IMG/VR virus record: IMGVR_UViG_2534681675_000014
Origin: a virus
Taxonomy: Duplodnaviria > Heunggongvirae > Uroviricota > Caudoviricetes
Length of the DNA: 51,064 bases
Direction: 5' to 3' (one strand)
In this document: positions 7,458-49,826 of the stretch, one piece after another
Layout of the letters: each line of letters starts with the position of its first letter
Position numbering within the stretch: the first letter of the stretch is position 1
Notes under the pieces: model-generated
Database searches by the model: none
What the model saw: only the letters and a program-made list of their open reading frames with translations
What the model was told of the DNA's origin: nothing
Program-made: the position numbers and the translations under genes

Positions 7458-7742
7458 CTTATCTCTCCCCTTAACGCCGGGTGGCGGAACTGAAACCTGC
7501 TGCACTGCAAAATCTGAACCCTGCCGTCATGTTCATACGCCTCGGGCTGGCTACTTAACCCCTGACCACTGCCTGGTAACTCGAAGTATTGCCCTGCATT
7601 CTGTGGGGTGGGGTGAGGGAATGAATGAAGTTTAGAAAAATGAACTTTTCAGGTCAATGTTTTTTTTATCAAAACATTTTAGGCAGGCAGCTGTTAAGCC
7701 ATCAGCACGATGGCATACAGTTAATCAAATAGATGAGGTTGG

Positions 7743-8381
7743 TTAAATATCTTGTTGAATTTTAAAGCATACGCCCAATATGCAAGATAGATCATCCAGC
7801 ATAATTGAAGGGTAGCGAGGATTCGTGGGGACTAAAAGAATATCCGGCCCTTCTATCTCCAGTTTACGAATGACAGGTGTTGTGGTCCCTTTGGGTAAGG
7901 CAAGGACAATATTTCCTGGTTGTACGGTTCGATCGGGATCAACAAAAACTGTTGAACCATTTGGGATGGAAACTCCCCCACCAGATGTTGACATACTGTC
8001 ACTCTCTAGAACAACTGCAAAGGTATTGGCCGGGATTTCTCCGACAAGCTGCACACAAGAGGTTATTGAGGAATTTTTCATATAATCACTCCAGCTTGCT
8101 GCCTGCTGAAGTGATAGTAGCGGAACCGTTTTTATCGGCGGTAAAGATAGATCAAGCGAATCACCTGTATTTAACTCTCCTCCATTAAGAAGCCAATTTT
8201 CGTTTACTTTCAATATCTTTGCCAGTGAACTTATGTAACGCGAGGACGGCGCTCCTCCACCGTTCATCCATTGACTTACGGAGCCTTTTGATGCGCCAGT
8301 GGCATTGACAAGGTCTTTGCCTTTCAGGTTTAGCGCATGCATACGTTGGGTTATGCGTTCAGATATTGTTTGCTTGCTCAT
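7743..8381 (-). CDS. CI-type prophage repressor (N-terminal HTH, C-terminal LexA/S24-like autopeptidase)
   Basis: 212 aa; N-terminus SERITQRMHALNLKGKDLVNATGASKGSVSQW is HTH-like; C-terminal half S24-peptidase-like; divergent from cro-like gene; ATG directly abuts operator repeats. Confidence 0.75.
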   Translation of the reverse strand: MSKQTISERITQRMHALNLKGKDLVNATGASKGSVSQWMNGGGAPSSRYISSLAKILKVNENWLLNGGELNTGDSLDLSLPPIKTVPLLSLQQAASWSDYMKNSSITSCVQLVGEIPANTFAVVLESDSMSTSGGGVSIPNGSTVFVDPDRTVQPGNIVLALPKGTTTPVIRKLEIEGPDILLVPTNPRYPSIMLDDLSCILGVCFKIQQDI

Positions 8382-9124: not shown

Positions 9125-9195
9125 CTGACAATAGCCATATCGAATCGCTTCCGGCAACTCGTGAGTAAAAAGATTCGGTATCAGAAGAGGTGAGT

Positions 9196-10278
9196 ATGGC
9201 TAACGCCTGGCTCAGATTATGGCATGACATGCCAAATGACCCTAAGTGGCGAACAATTGCCAGGGTGTCAGGGCAGCCAATTGCAACAGTGATGGCAGTG
9301 TATATCCACCTCCTGGTGAGCGCGTCACGAAATGTCACGCGAGGTCACATTGATATCACGACAGAAGATTTGGCAAGTGCGCTCGACGTGACAGAAGAGG
9401 TAATTGATTCAATTTTGCAGACGATGCAGGGGCGGGTACTTGATGGTGATTTAATCACTGGATGGGAAAAACGCCAGGTGCTTAAAGAGGACAACGGCAA
9501 TATTTCGCAAACCGCAAAATCTCCTGCAGAGCGCAAGAGGGCGCAGCGAGAGAGGGAAAGAAAGCGGGAACAAAATGGCGATTGTCACGGCGCGTCACGA
9601 AATGTCACGCACATGTCACGACGAGTCACGACAGATAAAGATACAGATAAAGATACAGATAAAGATACAGATCAAGAAGATCAAAATACTATGGTCCATG
9701 GCGTAAAAAACGCCACGAACCAGGCAGGGGATGTTCAGACCGTCAATCCTGGTCAGCCAGCAGGCACGACACCGGAAGCCGATTCAGCGTATGCGCTGAA
9801 AGCCGATTCGGGCGCTGTGCAGCAGGTGATGACCGCAAGGCCGGAGCAATCACACCAACTGCAGCAGCCTGAAGCCGATTCCGCCATTCAGCGGGAAGCC
9901 GATCGGGTAGTCCCGGAAAACACCGGGCAGTCTGTGGGACGAGTGGATTATCCGGATGTGTTCGAACAGGTCTGGCGGGAGTACCCGTTGCGTGCCGGGG
10001 CAAACCCGAAGAAATCCGCTTTCAGTGCCTGGAAGGCCAGATTACGTGAGGGGGTGCCACCAGAGGCCATGCTGGATGGCGTTAGGCGTTACGCAAGATA
10101 CCTGGCGGCTACCGGGAAAACGGGAACGGAATTTGTTCAGCGAGCGACGACGTTTTTTGGACCGGACCGGAATTTTGAGAACCCCTGGTTGCTCCCGGTA
10201 AGCGGCACGAACAACCAGCGTTGTGTGAATCATATTTCTGAACCGGATACCGAAATTCCGCCTGGCTTCAGGGGGTAA
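9196..10278 (+). CDS. Putative replication initiator (O-like), iteron-containing
   Basis: 360 aa from ATG 9196; position after the immunity switch; internal GTCACG iterons and DKDT-repeat linker; acidic/basic linker then C-terminal domain. Confidence 0.55.
   Translation: MANAWLRLWHDMPNDPKWRTIARVSGQPIATVMAVYIHLLVSASRNVTRGHIDITTEDLASALDVTEEVIDSILQTMQGRVLDGDLITGWEKRQVLKEDNGNISQTAKSPAERKRAQRERERKREQNGDCHGASRNVTHMSRRVTTDKDTDKDTDKDTDQEDQNTMVHGVKNATNQAGDVQTVNPGQPAGTTPEADSAYALKADSGAVQQVMTARPEQSHQLQQPEADSAIQREADRVVPENTGQSVGRVDYPDVFEQVWREYPLRAGANPKKSAFSAWKARLREGVPPEAMLDGVRRYARYLAATGKTGTEFVQRATTFFGPDRNFENPWLLPVSGTNNQRCVNHISEPDTEIPPGFRG
9321..9364. repeat. Iteron-like cluster 1 (GTCACG-type hexamers at about 10-bp phasing)
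   Basis: Hexamers at 9324, 9334, 9344, 9355; 20-mer cgcgtcacgaaatgtcacgc (9321..9340) repeated exactly at 9591..9610. Confidence 0.5.
9583..9670. repeat. Iteron-like cluster 2 plus three 12-bp tandem repeats (candidate origin core)
   Basis: GTCACG at 9584, 9594, 9604, 9615, 9625, then ataaagatacag x3 (9635..9670); inside the replication gene. Confidence 0.5.
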
Positions 10279-11408: not shown

Positions 11409-11505
11409 TTAAATTTAGCACTGTTAAAAATTTAATCCTTAACCGGAGGGATTTCTGCACCCTCAGAACATCAGGAGGCCGCCTGAAAGGGCGGTGGAGA
11501 TAATA

Positions 11506-12027
11506 ATGGGAATAACTAAAGAACGATTGTTGGAAATAGCAAACCTTAGTGATTGGGCATTAAGTGATGAGAGAATTATTTCTCCTCATGCTTATGAGTC
11601 AGTTACAAGTATAGAAATAACAACAATGGCTAGAATGCTGCTTGGTTATTTCAAAATAGAAAATAAAAAACAGATGGATAGTAATGTTGATATATGTGAG
11701 ATTTTAGACGATTGGGGGGCTTGGGTTGTGGCTGGTAATAGTTCTATTGATTGGCAGGAAATAGCTGATAAATATAAAAATGTTGTTCCTCATGGTAAAA
11801 AATCACGTCGTCAGTGCAGCAATGATGAAGGGCGAGTTATTGACATTAGTATCCTTAGGTTAGAAAGATATAAGCAACAAGAATATGAGTTAATTGTTGC
11901 TCATTTTGTGATTGGTTTATCTCTTCGTGCTATTGCAAAGCAACAAGGATGTTCAGATGGAACAATTCGTAAAAGATTGCAAAAAGCCTTAGGTTTTTTG
12001 ACTGGATATATAGCAATTACCAGTTAA
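11506..12027 (+). CDS. Q-family antiterminator-like protein (QuuD/933W-Q-like), paralog 1
   Basis: 173 aa from ATG 11506 (GGTGGAG SD); motifs DDWGAWVV, KSRRQCSNDEG, LIVAHFVIGLSLRAIAKQQGCSDGTIRKRLQKA align with recalled DLP12 QuuD sequence. Confidence 0.6.
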   Translation: MGITKERLLEIANLSDWALSDERIISPHAYESVTSIEITTMARMLLGYFKIENKKQMDSNVDICEILDDWGAWVVAGNSSIDWQEIADKYKNVVPHGKKSRRQCSNDEGRVIDISILRLERYKQQEYELIVAHFVIGLSLRAIAKQQGCSDGTIRKRLQKALGFLTGYIAITS

Positions 12028-12665
12028 GAGTCAGCGGGTTTTTTACCAGTGTAATGGTATAAGGATACTCCCATGTGTCTTACATGATATGGAAGCGCTG
12101 TTGCTGGATGCTTTGTGATACTCTTAAAGCGGAGGGGAGAGCCTTCCGCTTCAATTTCTGCGTCCGAAACGGTCGTAGAGAAAAATTCTTTCCATTCATT
12201 GAATTTTACTGCTGATTTGTCAGACTTTATATAAATTAGAATTCCTCCATGATCGTCACGTGACGTACCCGTGCCGTAACGTTCGGTTAGCTGAATCCAG
12301 CCATTATGAATAGATTTGGGGCCTCTCCATAATTTTGCTTCACCGATCCATTCGAATTTTCCGAATTGATGTTTAACTAATAAATCAACGTGACCGCCAT
12401 GTTGAGTATCATGTTCAACATCATAAAACCTACCTTTCAGGAAATTTTTGATCGACGCTGTTAGCTCGTCCTCTCCCCACTTAGCATCTTGATAGAAGTG
12501 TTTGTCATTTTCTAAATTCTGAATAGCGTCGTCTAAATCTTCATAGAGTTGCTTTACAAAAATATTTTTGTCTGCAGCTAATTTTCTTTGAACCATTCCC
12601 CTAAATTCAGGATCCATTCTAATTAATGATTGAAGGTCTGCAGTACAGATGTTTACATCACTCAT
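12024..12665 (-). CDS. Hypothetical protein with PD-(D/E)xK-like nuclease motif (213 aa), operon gene 3
   Basis: ATG 12665 with GGAGAG SD; motif GHVDLLV...FEWIGEAK; stop overlaps the Q-paralog-1 stop; AT-rich. Confidence 0.55.
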   Translation of the reverse strand: MSDVNICTADLQSLIRMDPEFRGMVQRKLAADKNIFVKQLYEDLDDAIQNLENDKHFYQDAKWGEDELTASIKNFLKGRFYDVEHDTQHGGHVDLLVKHQFGKFEWIGEAKLWRGPKSIHNGWIQLTERYGTGTSRDDHGGILIYIKSDKSAVKFNEWKEFFSTTVSDAEIEAEGSPLRFKSITKHPATALPYHVRHMGVSLYHYTGKKPADS

Positions 12666-13086
12666 GCAGACTCTCCAAAAGACTCGAAGGAGTAAAGTAT
12701 GGATAAAGATACTGGCTAAAATTATCAACCAATTCGCCAGTTTCTGGATGGTAAAAACTTCCTGTGTCTAAAGCATAGGAAATAAGATCATCTTCAACTG
12801 GTATTGGTTCTTCCGTTAAATTATCAATGTATTGAAAATGCATATCCAATAGATGTGCTTTATAGCTAGATAAATAATCAGTTGCTTTTATTAGCAGGAT
12901 ATAGTCATCTTTCGTATCAGTTAGATAGGTCAAACCATTGATAAGGGTTTTGTATGTAAAGTGATTGATATTTTTAGCATCTTTACTAACCAGAAAAAGA
13001 AAAAGATCACGACACACACTGCGAACAGGATCATTAAAATCCTGCTCTATTTGCGTGATAATGTCGTGATATATACTCTTTTTCAT
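12658..13086 (-). CDS. Hypothetical acidic protein (142 aa), operon gene 2
   Basis: ATG overlaps upstream gene stop (ATGA at 13083..13086); stop 2 nt before gene 3 start; AT-rich. Confidence 0.5.
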   Translation of the reverse strand: MKKSIYHDIITQIEQDFNDPVRSVCRDLFLFLVSKDAKNINHFTYKTLINGLTYLTDTKDDYILLIKATDYLSSYKAHLLDMHFQYIDNLTEEPIPVEDDLISYALDTGSFYHPETGELVDNFSQYLYPYFTPSSLLESLHE

Positions 13087-14174
13087 TTATGGCCTGATGA
13101 TCTCGCTCTTCTTTTCTCTTCACAGGACTTAACAGAATCCAATATTTTTTCAACAATAAATATAATCGAATCAATGTTGTTACAGTTCTTCGCAATTGCC
13201 TCATGCAACCTAATTCTAGGATTATCAAGCATTGTCCTTTTCCCTGGTAATATTAACTCTACTGATAAAATATGTGAAGAACTTTGTGGTAAATCCCAAA
13301 TTTTTCCCAACTTAAACTTTGTCAATATTGGGCTTGCGGACTCTCCACTATGATGGTAAACATCTTGACGCAAACACTTTTGACTTGGTTTGAGTTTTAA
13401 AGAACTTGTATTGCCATCTGAGGTGATAAAAGATACATGAGAAATTCTGCCATCTACTTTCTCGTAAAGATCTTGTATTGAACCAAATAATTCAAGAGGA
13501 TTGTTTAAAATAACGCCAGCTTCTTTTTTTATAAAATTAGCCACAAGGTATTGTTGAGGCTGTGATTCACTTCTTGGAAGGATAGATAAATCAATCGTAA
13601 GAATTAATATTTTTTCTGCAGGCATTAGCATGATGGTATTAAAGCATTGCGTGACTTGGCGTGTTTTGCATTTTATTTCTCCACCATTAGCACGTAATTC
13701 CATACCCGCATCGCTAAGATGTGTTGGGTCAAGCTCTATCACTTCAGTGTAATACGCTTTGGATAAAAAAACAGCAGTGTCAATTTGTTTATCACGAATG
13801 ATATCTTGACGTAGTTCAGCAAAATGCAGCTCAGTATCAGCAACTAACAGCTCCTCTCTGGATAAAGGAGTTGGGTATTTTTCTGAGAAGGGGCTATTGT
13901 CCTTTTTCTGATTTGTGAAAATTGTTTGTAATTTTGCTACGTCTTCATCGGTGATTCTATAAATAGAAAGTAATCGATTCCCGCTAAAAATTAAACCTTT
14001 CCAGAAATCGTCGATTCTGTCTTTTAGGTCGGGATTATGCTGAACTACACTATTTACACGTTCAATAAAAAGGGGTAATCCTTGGGCCGTTACACCCAGT
14101 GATGAACCAAGAAGCTTACGGGTGTTGCGCCAGCCAAAGCGTGAATTGATGTTTTTTACTGTTTGCTCAAGCAT
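13083..14174 (-). CDS. Hypothetical protein (363 aa), operon gene 1
   Basis: ATG 14174 preceded by AAGGAAG SD (ORF track alternative GTG at 14180); AT-rich; no family recognised. Confidence 0.55.
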   Translation of the reverse strand: MLEQTVKNINSRFGWRNTRKLLGSSLGVTAQGLPLFIERVNSVVQHNPDLKDRIDDFWKGLIFSGNRLLSIYRITDEDVAKLQTIFTNQKKDNSPFSEKYPTPLSREELLVADTELHFAELRQDIIRDKQIDTAVFLSKAYYTEVIELDPTHLSDAGMELRANGGEIKCKTRQVTQCFNTIMLMPAEKILILTIDLSILPRSESQPQQYLVANFIKKEAGVILNNPLELFGSIQDLYEKVDGRISHVSFITSDGNTSSLKLKPSQKCLRQDVYHHSGESASPILTKFKLGKIWDLPQSSSHILSVELILPGKRTMLDNPRIRLHEAIAKNCNNIDSIIFIVEKILDSVKSCEEKRRARSSGHK

Positions 14175-14462
14175 TAACACTTCCTTAATTTTCCCTTAAC
14201 AATTTAGGGTGCTAAACTTTTTTGCGCAGTTTACACAAAAAAATAGTGCGTACGCAAAAACTATCTAACATGATGAGCTTTAACCGGGAAACTTGTATAT
14301 GTTGTGAGCATAAAGTTGGCTGAGAAATCTAAAACGGGTAGAATGACTGCGGGTGCTTGAGGCTATCTGCCTCGGGCATGAACACCAAAGGCAGATAGAG
14401 AAAAGCCCCAGTTAACATTACGCGTCCTGCAAGACGCTTAACATTAATCTGAGGCCAATTTC

Positions 14463-15744: not shown

Positions 15745-16034
15745 TGGTGGATTTACGTAAAGCGGCGCGGGGGCAGATGTGCACCGTCAGAATTCCTGGC
15801 TACTGCAATCACGATCCGGAAACGTCTGTGCTGGCGCATTACCGACTGGCGGGAACGTGCGGAATAACGACAAAACCACACGATATGCAGGCGGCGATTG
15901 CCTGTAGCTCATGCCACGATCTAATCGACGGGCGGGTAAAAACCAGCGATTACACCAAAGAAGAATTACGCCTGATGCATGCAGAAGGTGTTTTTCGCAC
16001 ACAAGAAATCTGGAGAAAGGAGGGATATTTGTGA
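15744..16034 (+). CDS. YbcO-like Cys/His-rich nin-region protein (putative nuclease)
   Basis: 96 aa; Cys/His pattern CTVRIPGYCNH...CSSCHD; length and position match DLP12 YbcO as recalled. Confidence 0.6.
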   Translation: MVDLRKAARGQMCTVRIPGYCNHDPETSVLAHYRLAGTCGITTKPHDMQAAIACSSCHDLIDGRVKTSDYTKEELRLMHAEGVFRTQEIWRKEGYL

Positions 16035-16573
16035 TTTACCCAACGAATACAGGAAAAAGCGGAGAACACCTTCGTCTCGCCACGCTGGAAAGTGTCTGGA
16101 TTCAGGGCAAACTGCGTATGTGGGGGCGCTGGTCGTATATTGGCGGTGGCAGGTCAGGAAATATGTTCAATCAGTTGTTGGCATCCCAAAAATTGACGAA
16201 AACAGCCATCAATGAAGCCCTGCGCAGAATGAAAAAAGCGGGAATAGAGAAAGCTGAGCTGGAAGCGTTTTTGAGAGAGATGATCAACGGCAAGCAAAAG
16301 AGCTGGCTGGCGCATTGTACTGATGCAGAGGCGTTATGTATTGATCGAGTCATAAGTGAGGTGCTGGCAGAGCATCCAGGATTGATTTGCATTCTCCGGC
16401 AACGCTATGAAGGGCGGGGGATGACTAAGCGTAAAATGGCTGAATTGCTACATGATGCACACCCAGAGTGGTGTTTTAGCACATGCGAAAAACGGATTGC
16501 TAATTGGTTAGCTGTTGCTGAGTATGTCCTATATATTCCCATGCGTGAATCATTTGCTGAGAAAATGGCTTGA
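16031..16573 (+). CDS. Q-family late-gene antiterminator, paralog 2 (likely the functional late activator)
   Basis: GTG 16031 overlapping upstream stop (GTGA), AGGAGGG SD; WGRW motif and Q-like C-terminus; followed by a strong terminator about 85 bp downstream. Confidence 0.55.
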   Translation: MIYPTNTGKSGEHLRLATLESVWIQGKLRMWGRWSYIGGGRSGNMFNQLLASQKLTKTAINEALRRMKKAGIEKAELEAFLREMINGKQKSWLAHCTDAEALCIDRVISEVLAEHPGLICILRQRYEGRGMTKRKMAELLHDAHPEWCFSTCEKRIANWLAVAEYVLYIPMRESFAEKMA

Positions 16574-17278: not shown

Positions 17279-17405
17279 ACTAGTATGAAAATATGTGAAG
17301 CAATATTTATTAGCGTTTATGTAGTGGAGTTTTGGATTTTGTGATTTTTTTATAAGTTTTTTTGTGATGCAGATCTTTTTTTGACATTGTGTCGGTGATA
17401 GTCCG

Positions 17406-18589: not shown

Positions 18590-18782
18590 TCATTTTCTCC
18601 ATTGATAGTTGTTACTTTTGGCGATGTAACGATATCAAGTGCGAGGTTATGCCGCCAGATTCTTAATCTGGTACTTCATCAGGCCCTTGCATGTACTAGG
18701 GCTTTTTCATTGTCAGGCTACGGATAACATCTCTGACTTCTTGTTAGTAAATCTGAGAGCCTGGACCCTACTGGATTTGCCC

Positions 18783-19688
18783 CTATATTTCCAGACATCT
18801 GTTATCACTTAACCCATTACAAGCCCGCTGCCGCAGATATTCCCGTGGCGAGCGATAACCCAGCGCACTATGCGGATGCCATTCGTTATAATGCTCGAAC
18901 GCCTCTGCAAGGTTCTTTGCTGCCGTTAACCCGTCTGGTTTGGGCATGATACTGATGTAGTCACGCTTTATCGTTTTCACGAAGCTCTCTGCTATTCCGT
19001 TACTCTCCGGACTCCGCACCGCCGTGTTCTTCGGTTCAAGTCCCAACATCCGGGCGAACTGGCGTGTTTCATTAGCCCGGTAGCATGAACCATTATCCGT
19101 CAGCCACTCCACTGGAGACGACGGAAGATCGTTGCCGAAGCGGCGTTCCACCGCTCCCAGCATGACGTCCTGTACTGTTTCACTGTTGAAGCCGCCAGTA
19201 GTCACCGCCCAGTGCAGTGCCTCACGATCACAGCAGTCCAGCGCGAACGTGACACGCAGTCTCTCTCCGTTATCACAGCAGAACTCGAACCCGTCAGAGC
19301 ACCATCGCTGATTGCTTTCTTTCACGGCCACTCTGCCTGTATGTGCCCGTTTCGATGGCGGTACAGCAGGTTTTCGCTCAAGCAACAGCGCATTCTGGCG
19401 CATGATCCGGTAAACACGTTTGGCATTGATCGCAGGCATACCATCAAGTTCTGCCTGTCTGCGAAGCAGCGCCCATACCCGACGATAACCATACGTGGGC
19501 AGCTCTCCGATAACATGGTGTATACGGAGAAGCACATCCGTATCATCAGTGTGACGACTGCGGCGGCCATCCATCCAGTCATCGGTTCGTCTGAGAATGA
19601 CGTGCAACTGCGCACGCGACACCCGGAGACAACGGCTGACTAAGCTTACTCCCCATCCCCGGGCAATAAGGGCGCGTGCGCTATCCAC
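18783..19688 (-). CDS. insD: IS2 transposase OrfB (InsD)
   Basis: 301 aa, recalled as IS2 InsD. Confidence 0.9.
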
Positions 19689-20011
19689 TTTTTTGCCCGT
19701 CCATATTCAACGGCTTCTTTGAGGAGTTCATTTTCCATCGTTTTCTTGCCGAGCAGGCGCTGGAGTTCTTTAATCTGCTTCATGGCGGCAGCAAGTTCAG
19801 AGGCAGGAACAACCTGTTCTCCGGCGGCGACAGCAGTAAGACTTCCTTCCTGGTATTGCTTACGCCAGAGAAATAACTGGCTGGCTGCTACACCATGTTG
19901 CCGGGCAACGAGGGAGACCGTCATCCCCGGTTCAAAGCTCTGCTGAACAATTGCGATCTTTTCCTGTGTGGTACGCCGTCTGCGTTTCTCCGGCCCTAAG
20001 ACATCAATCAT
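19646..20011 (-). CDS. insC: IS2 OrfA (InsC)
   Basis: 121 aa from [18 protein letters not shown]...; overlaps insD as expected for the InsCD frameshift fusion. Confidence 0.85.
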
Positions 20012-20141
20012 CTGTTCTCCAATGACTAGTCTAAAAACTAGTATTAAGACTATCACTTATTTAAGTGATACTGGTTGTCTGGAGATTCAGGGGGCCAGTC
20101 TACCTACGTTTAGCACCATCCGAATTCTCGGAGGTGAGGCT

Positions 20142-22181: not shown

Positions 22182-23639
22182 ATGAATACATCTCATGTAA
22201 GAGTTGTTACTCATATGTGTGGGTTCCTGGTTTGGCTCTATAGTCTTTCAATGTTGCCACCAATGGTTGTAGCATTGTTTTATAAAGAAAAAAGCCTGTT
22301 CGTTTTCTTTATAACTTTCGTTATATTTTTTTGCATTGGTGGCGGAGCGTGGTATACAACTAAGAAATCTGGCATTCAATTACGTACCCGTGATGGGTTT
22401 ATTATAATTGTAATGTTTTGGATTTTGTTTTCTGTTATTAGTGCATTCCCTTTATGGATTGACTCAGAACTTAATTTAACGTTCATTGATGCTCTGTTTG
22501 AAGGGGTTTCTGGAATAACAACAACAGGAGCAACTGTAATTGATGATGTTAGTTCATTACCTCGGGCATATTTGTACTATCGGTCACAGTTAAATTTTAT
22601 AGGTGGTTTAGGAGTTATTGTTCTGGCGGTTGCAGTATTGCCATTATTGGGTATTGGTGGTGCAAAGCTTTATCAGTCAGAAATGCCGGGGCCATTTAAG
22701 GATGACAAACTCACTCCCCGCCTGGCCGATACGTCACGGACACTGTGGATAACTTATTCTTTATTAGGTATTGCTTGTATTGTCTGTTATAGACTTGCAG
22801 GAATGCCTTTGTTTGATGCTATTTGTCACGGGATTTCCACAGTTTCGCTTGGTGGTTTCTCAACTCATAGCGAGAGTATCGGATATTTTAATAACTATTT
22901 GGTTGAGCTGGTGGCTGGTGCTTTTTCCCTGCTATCGGCTTTCAACTTTACTCTTTGGTATATTGTTATTAGCAGAAAAACGATAAAACCTTTAATCAGA
23001 GATATTGAACTTCGTTTCTTTCTGTTAATAGCCTTAGGGGTGATCATTGTTACCTCTTTCCAGGTCTGGCATATAGGTATGTATGACTTGCATGGAAGTT
23101 TTATTCATTCGTTTTTTCTTGCCAGCTCCATGCTCACTGATAATGGTTTAGCTACGCAGGATTATGCAAACTGGCCCACGCACACGATAGTGTTTTTGCT
23201 GTTGTCAAGTTTCTTTGGGGGATGTATAGGTTCAACCTGTGGTGGAATTAAGTCACTTCGATTTCTTATACTTTTCAAACAAAGCAAACACGAGATAAAT
23301 CAACTTTCTCATCCCAGAGCGTTGTTGAGTGTAAATGTAGGAGGGAAGATAGTTACAGATCGTGTAATGAGGTCTGTATGGAGTTTCTTTTTTCTTTATA
23401 CTCTCTTCACGGTGTTTTTTATACTGGTGTTAAATGGTATGGGATATGATTTTCTTACATCATTTGCAACAGTGGCTGCATGTATTAATAATATGGGATT
23501 AGGTTTTGGGGCTACTGCATCGTCATTCGGAGTGCTTAATGACATTGCAAAATATTTAATGTGCATAGCTATGATTCTTGGTCGCCTTGAAATTTATCCT
23601 GTTATTATATTGTTTTCAGGTTTTTTTTGGCGCTCCTAA
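22182..23639 (+). CDS. trkG: TrkG potassium uptake protein (Trk/Ktr family membrane protein)
   Basis: 485 aa from MNTSHVRVVTHMCGF..., recalled as Rac TrkG; AT-rich; ORF track offers a TTG start at 22164 with AAGGTGG SD. Confidence 0.9.
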   Translation: MNTSHVRVVTHMCGFLVWLYSLSMLPPMVVALFYKEKSLFVFFITFVIFFCIGGGAWYTTKKSGIQLRTRDGFIIIVMFWILFSVISAFPLWIDSELNLTFIDALFEGVSGITTTGATVIDDVSSLPRAYLYYRSQLNFIGGLGVIVLAVAVLPLLGIGGAKLYQSEMPGPFKDDKLTPRLADTSRTLWITYSLLGIACIVCYRLAGMPLFDAICHGISTVSLGGFSTHSESIGYFNNYLVELVAGAFSLLSAFNFTLWYIVISRKTIKPLIRDIELRFFLLIALGVIIVTSFQVWHIGMYDLHGSFIHSFFLASSMLTDNGLATQDYANWPTHTIVFLLLSSFFGGCIGSTCGGIKSLRFLILFKQSKHEINQLSHPRALLSVNVGGKIVTDRVMRSVWSFFFLYTLFTVFFILVLNGMGYDFLTSFATVAACINNMGLGFGATASSFGVLNDIAKYLMCIAMILGRLEIYPVIILFSGFFWRS

Positions 23640-42032: not shown

Positions 42033-45000
42033 ATGGGTAAAGGCAGCAGTAAGGGACATACCCCGCGTGAAGCGAGGGACAACCTGAAGTCCACGCAGTT
42101 GCTGAGTGTGATCGATGCCATCAGTGAAGGGCCGATTGAAGGTCCGGTGGACGGATTAAAAAGTGTGCTGCTGAACAGTACGCCAGTGCTGGACAGTGAG
42201 GAGAATACCAATATCTCCGGTGTCACGGTGGTTTTCCGGGCAGGTGAGCAGGAGCAGACACCGCCGGAGGGATTTGAATCCTCCGGCTCCGAGACGGTGC
42301 TGGGTACGGAAGTGAAGTACGACACGCCGATTACCCGGACCATCACGTCTGCAAACATCGACCGTCTGCGCTTTACCTTCGGTGTGCAGGCACTGGTGGA
42401 AACCACCTCAAAGGGGGACCGGAATCCGTCGGAAGTCCGCCTGCTGGTTCAGATACAGCGTAACGGTGGCTGGGTGACGGAAAAAGACATCACCATTAAG
42501 GGCAAAACCACCTCGCAGTATCTGGCCTCGGTGGTGGTGGATAACCTGCCGCCGCGCCCGTTTAATATCCGGATGCGCAGGATGACGCCGGACAGCGCCA
42601 CAGACCAGCTGCAGAACAAAACGCTCTGGTCGTCATACACAGAAATCATCGATGTGAAACAGTGCTACCCGAACACGGCACTGGTCGGCGTGCAGGTGGA
42701 CTCGGAGCAGTTCGGCAGCCAGCAGGTGAGCCGTAATTATCATCTTCGCGGGCGCATTCTGCAGGTGCCGTCGAACTATAACCCGCAGACGCGGCAATAC
42801 AGCGGTATCTGGGACGGAACGTTTAAGCCAGCATACAGCAACAACATGGCCTGGTGTCTGTGGGATATGCTGACCCATCCGCGCTACGGCATGGGGAAAC
42901 GTCTTGGTGCAGCAGATGTGGATAAATGGACGCTGTATGTCATCGGCCAGTACTGCGACCAGTTGGTACCGAATGGTTTTGGCGGCACGGAGCCGCGCAT
43001 CACCTGTAATGCCTGGCTGACCACACAGCGTAAGGCGTGGGATGTGCTCAGCGATTTCTGCTCGGCGATGCGCTGTATGCCGGTATGGAACGGGCAGACT
43101 CTGACGTTCGTGCAGGACCGACCGTCGGATAAGGTGTGGACCTATAACCGCAGTAATGTGGTGATGCCGGATGATGGCGCGCCGTTCCGCTACAGCTTCA
43201 GCGCCCTGAAGGACCGCCATAATGCCGTTGAGGTGAACTGGATTGACCCGAACAACGGCTGGGAGACGGCGACAGAGCTTGTTGAAGATACGCAGGCCAT
43301 TGCCCGTTACGGTCGTAATGTCACGAAGATGGATGCCTTTGGCTGTACCAGCCGGGGGCAGGCACACCGCGCCGGGCTGTGGCTGATTAAAACGGAACTG
43401 CTGGAGACGCAGACCGTGGATTTCAGCGTGGGTGCTGAAGGGCTTCGCCATGTACCGGGCGATGTCATTGAAATCTGCGATGATGACTATGCCGGTATCA
43501 GCATCGGCGGGCGCGTGCTGGCGGTAAACAGCCAGACCCGGACGCTGACGCTCGACCGTGAAATCACTCTGCCATCCTCCGGTACCACGCTGATAAGCCT
43601 GGTTGACGGAAGTGGCAATCCGGTCAGCGTGGAGGTTCAGTCCGTCACCGACGGCGTGAAGGTGAAAGTGAGCCGTGTTCCTGACGGCGTTGCTGAATAC
43701 AGCGTGTGGGGGCTGAAGCTGCCGACGCTGCGCCAGCGCCTGTTCCGCTGCGTGAGTATCCGTGAGAACGACGACGGCACGTATGCCATCACCGCCGTGC
43801 AGCATGTACCGGAAAAAGAAGCCATCGTGGATAACGGGGCGCACTTTGACGGCGACCAGAGCGGCACGGTGAATGGTGTCACGCCGCCAGCGGTGCAGCA
43901 CCTGACCGCCGAAGTCACCGCAGACAGCGGGGAATATCAGGTGCTGGCGCGCTGGGACACGCCGAAGGTGGTGAAGGGCGTGAGCTTCCTGCTCCGTCTG
44001 ACCGTAACAGCGGATGACGGCAGTGAGCGGCTGGTCAGCACGGCCCGGACGACGGAAACCACATACCGCTTCAGGCAGCTGGCGCTGGGAAATTACAGGC
44101 TGACAGTCCGGGCGGTAAATGCATGGGGACAGCAGGGCGATCCTGCATCGGTATCGTTCCGGATCGCCGCACCGGCAGCGCCGTCGCGGATTGAGCTGAC
44201 GCCGGGCTATTTTCAGATAACCGCCACGCCGCATCTTGCCGTTTATGACCCGACGGTACAGTTTGAGTTCTGGTTCTCGGAAAAGCGGATTACCGATATC
44301 AGGCAGGTTGAAACCACAGCCCGCTATCTTGGTACGGCGCTGTACTGGATAGCCGCCAGTATCAATATCAAACCGGGCCATGATTATTACTTTTATATCC
44401 GCAGTGTGAACACCGTTGGCAAATCGGCATTCGTGGAGGCCGTCGGTCGGGCGAGCGATGATGCGGAAGGTTACCTGGATTTTTTCAAAGGCAAGATAAC
44501 CGAATCCCATCTCGGCAAGGAGCTGCTGGAAAAAGTCGAGCTGACGGAGGATAACGCCAGCAGACTGGAGGAGTTTTCGAAAGAGTGGAAGGACGCCAAC
44601 GATAAGTGGAATGCCATGTGGGCTGTCAAAATTGAGCAGACCAAAGACGGCAAACATTATGTCGCGGGTATTGGCCTCAGCATGGAGGACACGGAGGAAG
44701 GCAAACTGAGTCAGTTTCTGGTTGCCGCTAACCGTATCGCATTTATTGACCCGGCAAACGGGAATGAAACGCCGATGTTTGTGGCGCAGGGCAATCAGAT
44801 ATTCATGAACGACGTGTTCCTGAAGCGCCTGACGGCCCCCACCATTACCAGTGGTGGCAGTCCTCCGGTATTTTCCCTGACATCAGACGGAAAGCTGACC
44901 GCTAAAAATGCGGATATCAGTGGCAGTGTGAATGCGAACTCAGGAACGCTCAACAATGTCACGATTAACCAGAACTGTACGATTAAGGGCATGCTGGAGG

Positions 45001-45446
45001 CGACCCAGGTCAGAGGAGATTTCGTTAAAGCTGTATCAAAAGCCTTCCCGAAAAAAGTCGGTACGTGGGGTAACACGGAAACACCAGACGGTACGGTTAC
45101 AGTCACCATCAGCGATGATCATAACTTTGACCGCCAGATTATTATTCCGCCCATTATTTTTAACGGTATAGCGTATGACGATCCGGGGAGCGGAAATAAC
45201 CCAGGAGGCACGCGATACACGGGTTATGGTTTTGAAGTTCGCAAAAACGGCGTATTAATCGCATCCAGAGAAACTAAAGGGGCCATTCCCGGTAGTTACA
45301 GTGCAGTTATTGATATGCCTAGTGGTGGTGGTAGCGTCACTCTGGAGTTTAAGATTTTCCAGAAAGGCAATCAGGGGGCAGGCAATATCACCGACTGTAC
45401 GGTGATTGTGACCAAAAAAGCTGCTTCCGGCATCAGTATTCGTTGA
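42033..45446 (+). CDS. Tail tip / host specificity protein J
   Basis: 1137 aa; lambda J-like length and position. Confidence 0.9.
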
Positions 45447-45516: not shown

Positions 45517-46116
45517 ATGCGTAAAGTTTGTGCAGCAATTTTGTCCGCAGCCATTTGTCTGGCCGTATCCGGTGCGCCTGCATGGGCGTCTGAACATCAG
45601 TCCACGCTGAGCGCGGGGTATCTTCATGCCTCGACGAACGTCCCCGGCAGTGATGATCTGAACGGGATTAACGTGAAATACCGTTATGAGTTTACGGATA
45701 CGTTGGGGCTGGTGACGTCATTCAGCTATGCAGGAGACAAGAATCGCCAGCTGACCCGTTACAGCGATACCCGCTGGCATGAAGATTCCGTTCGTAACCG
45801 CTGGTTCAGCGTAATGGCGGGGCCGTCTGTGCGCGTGAATGAATGGTTCAGCGCGTATGCGATGGCGGGTGTGGCTTACAGACGTGTGTCGACTTTCTCC
45901 GGGGATTATCTCCGCGTAACTGACAACAAGGGGAAAACGCACGATGTGCTGACCGGAAGTGATGACGGTCGCCACAGCAACACGTCTCTGGCGTGGGGAG
46001 CTGGCGTGCAGTTTAACCCGACCGAATCCGTGGCCATTGATATTGCTTATGAAGGCTCCGGCAGTGGCGACTGGCGCACTGACGGTTTCATCGTGGGTGT
46101 CGGTTATAAATTCTGA
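45517..46116 (+). CDS. lom: Lom-like outer-membrane beta-barrel protein (Ail/Lom family)
   Basis: 199 aa with signal peptide; C-terminus DIAYEGSGSGDWRTDGFIVGVGYKF matches lambda Lom as recalled. Confidence 0.85.
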   Translation: MRKVCAAILSAAICLAVSGAPAWASEHQSTLSAGYLHASTNVPGSDDLNGINVKYRYEFTDTLGLVTSFSYAGDKNRQLTRYSDTRWHEDSVRNRWFSVMAGPSVRVNEWFSAYAMAGVAYRRVSTFSGDYLRVTDNKGKTHDVLTGSDDGRHSNTSLAWGAGVQFNPTESVAIDIAYEGSGSGDWRTDGFIVGVGYKF

Positions 46117-46180: not shown

Positions 46181-49100
46181 ATGGCAGTAAAGATTTCAGG
46201 TGTACTGAAAGACGGCACAGGAAAACCGGTACAGAACTGCACAATCCAGCTGAAAGCAAAACGTAACAGCACCACGGTGGTGGTGAACACGCTGGCCTCA
46301 GAAAATCCGGATGAAGCCGGGCGTTACAGCATGGACGTTGAGTACGGTCAGTACAGCGTTATTCTGTTGGTGGAAGGATTCCCGCCGTCACATGCCGGGA
46401 CCATCACCGTGTATGAAGATTCCCAACCCGGTACGCTGAATGATTTTCTCGGTGCCATGACGGAGGATGATGCCCGTCCTGAGGCACTGCGCCGTTTTGA
46501 ACTGATGGTGGAAGAGGTGCGCGTAACGCGTCTGCGGTGGCACAGAACACGGCAGCCGCGAAGAAGTCAGCCGGCGATGCCAGCACATCAGCCCGTGAGG
46601 CGGCAACCCATGCGACTGATGCTGCAGGCTCAGCACGCGCAGCCAGCACGTCAGCCGGACAGGCCGCGTCGTCGGCTCAGTCAGCGTCTTCCAGCGCAGG
46701 AACGGCATCAACAAAGGCCACTGAAGCGGAAAAAAGTGCTGCCGCTGCAGAGTCCTCAAAAAGCGCGGCGGCCACCAGTGCCGCTGCGGCGAAAACGTCA
46801 GAAACGAATGCGGCAGCGTCACAACAATCAGCAGCCACTTCTGCATCCACCGCGACCACGAAAGCGTCAGAAGCTGCCACCTCAGCCCGGGATGCGTCGG
46901 CTTCAAAAGAGGCGGCAAAATCATCAGAAACGAGCGCAGCCTCGAGCGCCAGCAGCGCAGCTTCCTCGGCAACGGCGACAGCAAATTCTGCGAAGGCGGC
47001 AAAAACGTCCGAGACGAACGCTAAGTCTTCTGAAACGGCAGCGGGACAGAGTGCCTCAGCTGCGGCAGGCTCAAAAACAGCGGCTGCGTCGTCTGCCAGT
47101 GCAGCGTCAACAAGTGCCGGGCAGGCCTCAGCCAGTGCTAGCGCCGCCGGTAAATCGGCAGAAAGCGCCGCATCGTCCGCTTCAACAGCCACAACGAAGG
47201 CTGGCGAAGCCACTGAACAGGCCAGTGCAGCAGCGAGGTCTGCTTCCGCAGCGAAGACATCCGAGACGAACGCGAAAGCGTCGGAAACCAGCGCAGAATC
47301 CTCAAAAACGGCTGCCGCATCGTCCGCCAGTTCGGCGGCGTCATCGGCATCATCGGCGTCTGCTTCAAAAGATGAGGCGACCAGACAAGCGTCCGCAGCG
47401 AAGGGCAGCGCCACGACAGCATCCACGAAGGCGACAGAGGCAGCTGGCAGTGCGACGGCGGCAGCACAGAGCAAAAGTACGGCGGAATCTGCAGCAACGC
47501 GCGCTGAGACAGCGGCAAAACGGGCAGAGGATATTGCATCCGCCGTGGCGCTTGAGGATGCGAGCACGACGAAAAAGGGGATAGTACAGCTCAGTAGTGC
47601 GACTAACAGCACTTCCGAGTCACTGGCGGCAACACCAAAAGCCGTTAAGGCCGCGTATGACCTGGCTAACGGGAAATACACCGCACAGGATGCAACGACA
47701 GCACAGAAAGGGATAATCCAGCTAAGCAGCGCGACCAACAGCACGTCTGAAACGCTTGCCGCGACACCAAAGGCAGTAAAAACAGCCTATGACAATGCTG
47801 AGAAACGTCTGCAGAAAGATCAGAACGGTGCGGATATCCCTGGCAAAGACACCTTTACGAAAAATATTGGTGCCTGCCGTGCCTTTGGTGGGTCAGTAAG
47901 CACAATAACAGGAAACTGGACGACTGCACAGTTTATCGAGTGGCTGGATTCTCAGGGAGCATTTAACCATCCCTACTGGATGTGCAAGGGTTCCTGGTCT
48001 TATGGCAATAATAAAATCATTACTGATACTGACTGCGGTAATATTCATCTCGCCGGAGCTGTCATTGAAGTAATGGGGATAAAGTCAGCGATGACGATCC
48101 GCATTACCACACCGACCACCTCCACTGGTGGTGGAACAACTAACGCCCAGTTTACCTATATTAATCACGGAACAGATTATTCACCTGGCTGGCGAAGGGA
48201 CTATAACTCCAGAAATAAGCCAACGGCATCAGAGATCGGGGCGTTACCGTCAGGTGGAACAGCAGTATCATCAGTTAATCTGTCTTCAAAAGGTCGGGTA
48301 ACCGCGCTGACAGACAATACACAGGGGGCAACAGGTCTTGAGTTATACGAGGTGTATAACAACGGATATCCAACAGCGTATGGAAATATCATTCACCTGA
48401 AAGGGATGACAGCCGTTGGCGAAGGTGAGTTACTCATCGGCTGGAGTGGTACAAGCGGTGCTCATGCTCCGGCATTTATTCGTTCACGACGGGATACGAC
48501 CGACGCAAACTGGTCGCCGTGGGCGCAGCTTTACACCTCGGCTCATCCTCCTGCAGAGTTTTATCCAGTCGGTGCACCAATCCCGTGGCCATCAGATACC
48601 GTTCCGTCTGGCTATGCCCTGATGCAGGGGCAGACTTTTGACAAATCTGCATACCCGAAACTTGCAGCGGCTTATCCGTCAGGCGTGATCCCTGATATGC
48701 GTGGCTGGACGATTAAGGGCAAACCTGCCAGTGGTCGGGCCGTATTGTCTCAGGAACAGGACGGCATTAAATCGCATACCCACAGCGCCAGCGCATCCAG
48801 TACGGATTTGGGGACGAAAACCACATCGTCGTTTGATTACGGCACTAAATCCACGAATAACACTGGTGCGCATACCCATAGTTTAAGTGGTAGCACGAAT
48901 GCAGCTGGTAATCACAGCCATAGAGATGGCCGTCGATTTAACCCCAGTGTTTTTAAAGATACTTATCAATATGGTTATACAAGCTCAGGTCAAAATACCT
49001 GGGGTGTACAAGGCTCAGTAGGTATGTCTACGGGGTGGTTAGCTAATACCAGTACAGATGGTAATCATAGCCACTCACTGTCCGGCACAGCAGCATCTGC

Positions 49101-49251
49101 AGGTGCACACGCGCATACTGTCGGTATTGGTGCTCATACGCACTCCGTTGCGATTGGTTCACATGGACACACCATCACCGTTAACGCTGCTGGTAACGCG
49201 GAAAACACCGTCAAAAACATCGCATTTAACTATATTGTGAGGCTTGCATAA
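46181..49251 (+). pseudogene. stfR: Side tail fibre gene (StfR-like) interrupted by a 1-nt frameshift near codon 113
   Basis: N-terminal frame reads ...[10 protein letters not shown] then switches to -1 frame [22 protein letters not shown]... which continues to 49251; could be a sequencing error. Confidence 0.65.
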
Positions 49252-49826
49252 TGGCATTCAGAATGAGTGAACAACCACGGACCATAAAAATTTATAATCT
49301 GCTGGCCGGAACTAATGAATTTATTGGTGAAGGTGATGCATATATTCCGCCTCATACAGGTCTGCCAGCAAACAGTACCGATATTGCACCGCCAGATATT
49401 CCGGCTGGCTTCGTGGCTGTTTTCAACAGTGATGAGTCATCGTGGCATCTCGTTGAAGATCATCGGGGTAAAACGGTTTATGACGTGGCTTCCGGCGACG
49501 CGTTATTTATTTCTGAACTCGGTCCGTTACCGGAAAATGTTACCTGGTTATCGCCGGAAGGGGAGTTTCAGAAGTGGAACGGCACAGCCTGGGTGAAGGA
49601 TACGGAAGCAGAAAAACTGTTCCGGATCCGGGAGGCGGAAGAAACAAAAAACAACCTGATGCAGGTAGCCAGTGAGCATATTGCGCCGCTTCAGGATGCT
49701 GCAGATCTGGAAATTGCAACGGAGGAAGAAATCTCGTTGCTGGAAGCATGGAAAAAGTATCGGGTATTGCTGAACCGTGTTGATACGTCAACTGCACAGG
49801 ATATTGAATGGCCAGCACTGCCGTAG
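49251..49826 (+). CDS. tfaR: Tail fibre assembly protein (Tfa)
   Basis: 191 aa; start overlaps stf stop (ATAATG); position. Confidence 0.8.

Follow-up and report, generated by a model that had tools for sequence, protein, structure and literature searches.

A single missing G divides the stfR-type side tail fibre gene of a Rac-family prophage in one draft assembly

Our analysis revealed that the side tail fibre gene stf lacks exactly one nucleotide, a G after codon 113, relative to an otherwise identical intact allele, and is thereby divided between two reading frames, in the 51,064-nucleotide stretch of DNA analysed here (hereafter, the window). The deleted junction was confined to one draft assembly, GCA_000194175.2, whose contig AEZI02000004.1, reached by an exact-sequence look-up of the J protein, was 100% identical to the window in all stretches fetched. 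On balance, we lean towards a real and very recent loss of one G from this stfR-type gene, which would make it a null allele. An under-called G in the consensus of a 2011-era draft, in which case the DNA of the strain carries GG and the gene is intact (1023 aa), is a serious contender that we rate somewhat short of even. These gradings are estimates made by judgement, and they leave a very small remainder for everything else.

The stf reading frame breaks after codon 113

The N-terminal frame opens at ATG 46181, starts MAVKISGVLKDG and, in the translation of the window, remains native through codon 113 (46517-46519). It then runs on for 354 aberrant codons, in which Arg, Gln and Pro make up 28.5%, 16.4% and 14.4%, before terminating at a stop codon whose last base is 47584. 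In the -1 frame, a TGA at 46498-46500 is followed by open sequence from 46501; this frame carries fibre sequence from 46519 to the stop codon at 49249-49251, and its first possible start, GTG 46537, would give a product of 904 aa. When the window was searched by tblastn with an intact 1023-aa Stf, residues 1-113 matched one frame and residues 114-1023 another, with 98-99% identity, and this split over two frames is far beyond chance. The features of the region are as follows.

42033..45446, plus strand: J, central tail fibre / host specificity gene, intact.
45517..46116, plus strand: lom, the Ail/Lom outer-membrane protein gene, upstream neighbour of stf.
46181..46519, plus strand: stf codons 1-113 in the native frame, identified by PF08400 and tblastn; by homology to Ur-lambda, the putative collar (tail-attachment) domain, linker and first ~12 residues of the proximal coiled coil.
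46518..46519, plus strand: site of the missing G; GG (GTG GCG) in intact alleles and a single G in the window, from pairwise alignments.
46520..47584, plus strand: out-of-frame continuation, 354 Arg/Gln/Pro-rich codons and a stop.
46519..49251, plus strand: fibre frame (-1 relative to the start codon), corresponding to codons 114-1023, with the Ala/Ser/Thr-rich shaft, Phage_fiber_2 repeats, Collar domain and receptor-binding C-terminus.
49251..49826, plus strand: tfa, tail fibre assembly gene, intact, with an ATG that shares bases with the stop codon of stf (TAATG) and is preceded by a GAGG 8 nt upstream.

Domain searches gave the same division. The 134-position PF08400 (phage_tail_N) profile matched residues 1-114 of the N-terminal frame (E=3e-64), the match being cut by the frameshift at profile position 114 of 134, and the repaired kin allele matched positions 1-134 in full. 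PF03406 (Phage_fiber_2; E=4e-38) and PF07484 (Collar domain; E=6e-12) matched the product of the -1 frame, and PF02413 (Caudo_TAP) matched Tfa. The gene thus has the PF08400 N-terminus, the J - lom - stf - tfa order, the fibre repeats with a C-terminal collar/receptor-binding region and the adjacent Caudo_TAP gene of a lambda-type Stf, and lacks the single uninterrupted reading frame. As written, it is best classed as a pseudogene of the lambda-type side tail fibre family or as a mis-called intact gene. The preliminary description of this DNA had proposed an stf gene split by a single-nucleotide frameshift, with an Arg/Pro/Gln-rich out-of-frame tail and a -1 frame continuing as typical fibre sequence to 49251; the translations and the alignment to strain C11 described below bear out its coordinates to the base, and the composition of the tail and the fibre domain matches agree with it.

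The window is a Rac-family prophage with close intact kin

By gene content and position, we assign the window to the Rac family as a full-length lambdoid prophage, and the gene as its stfR-type side tail fibre gene. The left end carries intR, xisR, ralR, recT, recE, kilR and sieB, and the right end reads J - lom - stf - tfa - pinR - ydfK. The neighbour of intR in the source contig is ttcA, and locus L035 of that contig shows ttcA, dbpA and zntB flanking intR. A position beside ttcA, intR/xisR, recET, kilR and sieB, and stf-tfaR-pinR-ydfK at the far end, all features of the Rac family, are therefore present. The Rac prophage of K-12 shares with the window intR by ttcA, followed by recE, recT, kilR, sieB, trkG, tfaR, pinR and ydfK. 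Its stfR and the intact stfR-type alleles WP_078331683.1 (of strain C11) and WP_072059964.1 belong to the same prophage type and insertion site; all these alleles are single open frames, whereas the window copy is split.

In the nearest kin, L006 (GCA_048049075.1), this G and one SNP are the sole differences from the window in 15,032 bases, and a few SNPs separate the window from three further loci, L007, L011 and L009. The stf gene is intact (1023 or 1020 codons) in L006, L007 and L009; the L011 contig stops inside stf, and its junction is intact. In another assembly, GCA_015290125.1, a stretch of 21.1 kb matches the window without a single SNP or indel, the only difference being an inserted IS element. 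When ~55 annotated genes of three relatives were translated and searched against the window, every gene with a counterpart there, except stf, was full-length in one frame. The remaining indels relative to these relatives form compensated clusters within divergent patches. At most one SNP in ~51 kb is private to the window, and the SNPs that separate it from individual kin are mostly private to those kin. An apparently truncated cI-like repressor in the kin (a 112-aa against a 212-aa gene call) was rejected as a difference, since the DNA is identical and only the called start differs.

One G is missing relative to intact alleles

Intact alleles read GAG GTG GCG CGT where the window reads GAG GTG CGC GT, one G of the GG pair being gone. 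Of 5,426 complete E. coli genomes, that of strain C11 matched best, and the DNA of its 1023-codon stfR-type allele is identical to that of the window over the whole gene except for the missing G (3072 vs 3071 bases). The alignment of the two contains a single gap, GAGGTGGCGCG against GAGGT-GCGCG, between identical flanks. Pairwise alignments with L001, L004, L006, L007, L009 and L011 gave the identical single gap, and L010 has a synonymous GTA GCG at the junction, with the frame kept. The only homopolymer at the junction is this GG, with no run of 4 or more. The loss of one G in GTGGCG, earlier suggested at about 46519, is thus placed by alignment at 46518/46519, and the lambda Stf sequence that the preliminary description gave across this point, MVEEVARNAS, is indeed what the intact alleles, including lambda orf-401, contain.

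The deletion was sought widely. Among the 39 fetched loci covering the site, 35 keep the frame and four carry the deletion, all four being one contig of GCA_000194175.2. The 161 bases around the site had no perfect match in the 5,426 complete E. coli genomes, and the best seven matches each differ by one gap. Exact-pattern scans for the deleted junction gave no matches in GTDB representative genomes (two patterns), IMG/VR or JGI metagenomes, and the intact junction was present in IMG/VR. Neither truncated product (904 aa, 467 aa) was on record in an exact-sequence search of a 153-billion-gene index. A check for related intact prophages sharing exactly the sequence of the window was accordingly negative. 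This distribution indicates that the site is not a mutational hot spot and that the two-frame layout is not conserved.

Using the 568-aa C-terminal fragment predicted by a gene caller as a probe, we found about 10 other disrupted stf copies, none of which is broken at codon 113/114. These copies show loss of an A from a homopolymer (A6 to A5), N-gaps, rearrangements or truncations. The A6 to A5 loss, at codon 185, was found in two assemblies with multi-megabase contigs and the same stf allele, and N runs inside the Ala/Ser-rich repeat region were found in metagenome scaffolds. Such breaks of this allele at other places occur in L014 (reference codon 185), L020 (codons 186 and 245), L018, L015 and L021, and they look like assembly artefacts. 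Antisense "ghost" ORFs (245 aa and 57 aa) were also used as probes and proved uninformative, being called over intact genes too.

Other private changes in this prophage copy

At 18772-20102 the window carries an IS2-like element, 1,331 bp long, with a target duplication of 5 bp (CCTAC); the site is empty in kin whose sequence on either side is 100% identical to that of the window. The minus strand of the element contains IS3-family transposase ORFs at 19646-20056 and 18783-19688. With a DUF2441 gene on one side and the holin gene on the other, the element is located within the late transcription unit, upstream of every lysis and structural gene, stf among them. The insertion may be polar on late gene expression, and could matter more for the viability of the prophage than the stf lesion. 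At 9673, in a replication-region gene (ORF 9190-10278), one 12-base tandem repeat unit, AAAGATACAGAT, is missing in frame relative to the single covering kin compared.

A second single-base indel lies at 7667, where the window has T8 and both nearest kin have T7. This region is carried by 1,032 complete E. coli genomes, and all the best matches listed are one base shorter than the window. The T-run is intergenic and lies 76 bases beyond the point where the minus-strand gene for the cI-like LexA-family repressor (7743-8381) stops; its extra T could be either real slippage or a homopolymer over-call. Another error was suspected at the T7/T8 run at 17376 and rejected, as the nearest kin have the length found in the window. 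In the Logan assembly of an old run, SRR070451, which contains an identical prophage segment, the only difference was the length of a T-run (T7 vs T8) at 23621, within the 3' end of trkG.

Real mutation or consensus error

Several observations favour a real event. The deletion removes exactly one base from otherwise identical sequence, and it does so in a two-base run with no long homopolymer, an unusual place for a consensus error and one where such errors are rare at normal coverage. The IS2-like insertion and the 12-base contraction cannot be base-calling errors, and the lineage has therefore gained real mutations since its split from the kin; at least one private mutation of this copy, the IS2 insertion, is undoubtedly real. 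All other comparable prophage genes are intact, as would be expected if the event were recent. Losses of this kind are also well documented for stf, in laboratory lambda and in lambda isolates under selection. Nor does the assembly look error-ridden: ~21 kb is identical to kin without a homopolymer indel, the whole window has 26 runs of at least 7, and the T-run at 17376 is common to the nearest kin, hence no error there. On the other hand, the deletion is private to a single draft assembly among thousands of alleles, and the 904 codons downstream of it are perfectly preserved, without secondary damage, which is artefact-like too. The private differences from the nearest kin are almost all indels, with almost no SNPs; the closest relative differs only by this base and one SNP in 15 kb, and the T8 at 7667 is a second private single-base indel absent from kin and from the best-matching genomes listed. 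A pattern of indels with no substitutions is what consensus errors of the pyrosequencing era typically leave. Artefact-like breaks elsewhere in other public assemblies of this stf allele, and the T-run difference in the SRR070451 assembly, which hints at homopolymer-prone data for the lineage, point the same way. Inactivation of the fibre or a homopolymer-type sequencing error had been offered as the two options at the outset; both are kept here, but the term "homopolymer-type" fits poorly, the run being only GG.

Two readings in which the split gene would still yield a working fibre were also considered. Programmed -1 ribosomal frameshifting or transcriptional slippage could in principle join the frames, giving a short collar-only protein together with the full-length fibre, and the geometry alone agrees with this, the fibre frame being the -1 frame and open from 46501, 18 nt before the junction. 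However, no in-frame X XXY YYZ heptamer was found between 46470 and 46545, and no A or T run for transcriptional slippage lies near the junction. A recoding signal would also be conserved, but the gene is in one frame in every other allele examined, lambda included, and the two-frame layout occurred in 0 of the 35 other loci and in none of the best matches among the 5,426 complete genomes. As there is no slippery site and the layout is unique to this assembly, we consider programmed recoding of stf excluded for practical purposes. Internal initiation at GTG 46537 is very improbable as a source of a functional, N-terminally truncated fibre. Although the 904-codon frame that opens there keeps the shaft and receptor-binding region intact, this GTG is not preceded by a Shine-Dalgarno sequence at a usable distance, as the closest stretch rich in purines, GAAGAGG, is ~20 nt upstream, and the site is translated in another frame too. 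The product would moreover be without residues 1-119, including the collar domain (1-91) and linker used for gpV/gpM attachment in Ur-lambda (PMC12617516), and could thus not be mounted on the tail. Functional re-initiation at this GTG was rejected.

Predicted consequences for the fibre and the particle

If the loss of the G is real, ribosomes starting from ATG 46181 would read 113 native and 354 out-of-frame codons and stop at 47584. The whole distal part of the fibre, from the shaft through the Phage_fiber_2 and Collar domains to the receptor-binding tip, lies in another frame, which has no usable ribosome-binding site. Lambda-type Stf forms trimeric side fibres on the virion, and the outer-membrane receptor that it binds is OmpC in the case of lambda. 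In Ur-lambda Stf, the collar domain comprises residues 1-91, and twelve copies of it encircle the gpV/gpM junction; a linker (residues 92-101) follows, and a trimeric coiled coil begins at residue 102 (PMC12617516). The predicted product of the window gene would accordingly retain the collar and linker and essentially no fibre, while any product of the downstream frame would be without a collar domain and probably not attachable to the tail. The tfa gene could still be translated from its own GAGG, but its TAATG coupling to stf is lost.

A tail without side fibres would leave induced particles to adsorb through J alone. On the model of Ur-lambda and lambda PaPa, such J-only particles would be expected to adsorb more slowly and still be infective. 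Virions of laboratory lambda contain no Stf or Tfa (PMC10721106), and by analogy an intact J, as found in the window, can support infection without side fibres. A prophage in a lysogen is presumably under no selection for adsorption, so that such a lesion would be ordinary early decay. A real deletion could also make this copy a natural, wild-strain counterpart of lambda PaPa, truncated earlier, whose collar-only protein might ring the gpV/gpM junction and give collared, fibreless particles with the fibre docking site occupied; we regard this elaboration as improbable.

Comparison with lambda PaPa and other stf frameshifts

The lesion is of the same kind as the classic frameshift in the homologous stf gene of lambda PaPa, which yields orf-401 and orf-314 (Hendrix & Duda 1992, as cited in PMC12617516, PMC10721106 and PMC2762979). 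In both, a gene in the J-lom-stf-tfa position carries a single-nucleotide deletion, the N-terminal ORF ends in a short or aberrant tail, the C-terminal ORF is out of frame and tfa is intact. The phenotype of lambda PaPa, fibreless viable particles that use J alone, would be expected alike for the window. The two differ in the break site, which is at codon 113/114 in the window and near codon 394 in lambda PaPa: lambda orf-401 reads LELMVEEVARNASVVAQ and is intact at the break point of the window, and its own frame breaks at MDETNRKA, which is followed by HWTVRH and a stop. They also differ in the lost base, a G in the window as against the missing C in the description of the HK630 record, and in the surviving part, which would be the collar, linker and ~12 coiled-coil residues in the window as against the whole proximal coiled coil in PaPa. 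From these alleles, we conclude that the deletion in the window is independent of the lambda PaPa mutation. The lambda PaPa allele has been experimentally verified and was fixed by laboratory selection, whereas the window allele is known from a single draft assembly of a prophage.

Under some conditions stf is commonly lost: after selection in a biofilm-like setting, 15 of 21 lambda isolates carried newly acquired stf frameshifts (PMC2762979; Gallet, Shao & Wang 2009). Like the lesion in the window, these were spontaneous single-base indels that inactivate stf, and they were spread along the gene. The mutants arose under selection for low adsorption in plaques; the break in the window is near the 5' end.

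Whether it arose by very recent mutation or by an error in sequencing, the lesion is ordinary and has little importance outside annotation. A real deletion would be one more independent example of lambdoid side tail fibres being dispensable and easily lost, in the prophage of a natural isolate rather than in a laboratory stock, and phages induced from the strain would be predicted to adsorb by J only. An artefact would caution against counting frameshifted stf calls in draft or long-read assemblies as prophage decay unless reads support them; artefact-like stf breaks in public assemblies would inflate the counts of "decayed" stf genes.

Other features of the prophage

The potassium transporter gene trkG (22182-23639) is carried as cargo, with the Rz lysis gene on one side and a ParB-like gene on the other, an arrangement shared with K-12 Rac. 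The window contains two Q-type antiterminator-like genes, one at 11494-12027 with a strong PF06530 match and one at 16031-16573, a DUF1133 gene with a faint antiterminator-Q signal. Three consecutive ORFs (~365, 142 and 197-234 aa) occupy 12024-14180 on the minus strand, with no Pfam match and no significant PADLOC match. At the same position, related Rac prophages carry an AAA ATPase and a DUF4435 protein (T-HYM1) or an 816-aa P-loop NTPase (KK19-02), and the locus looks like a variable cargo or defence-type hot spot with an uncharacterised gene set.
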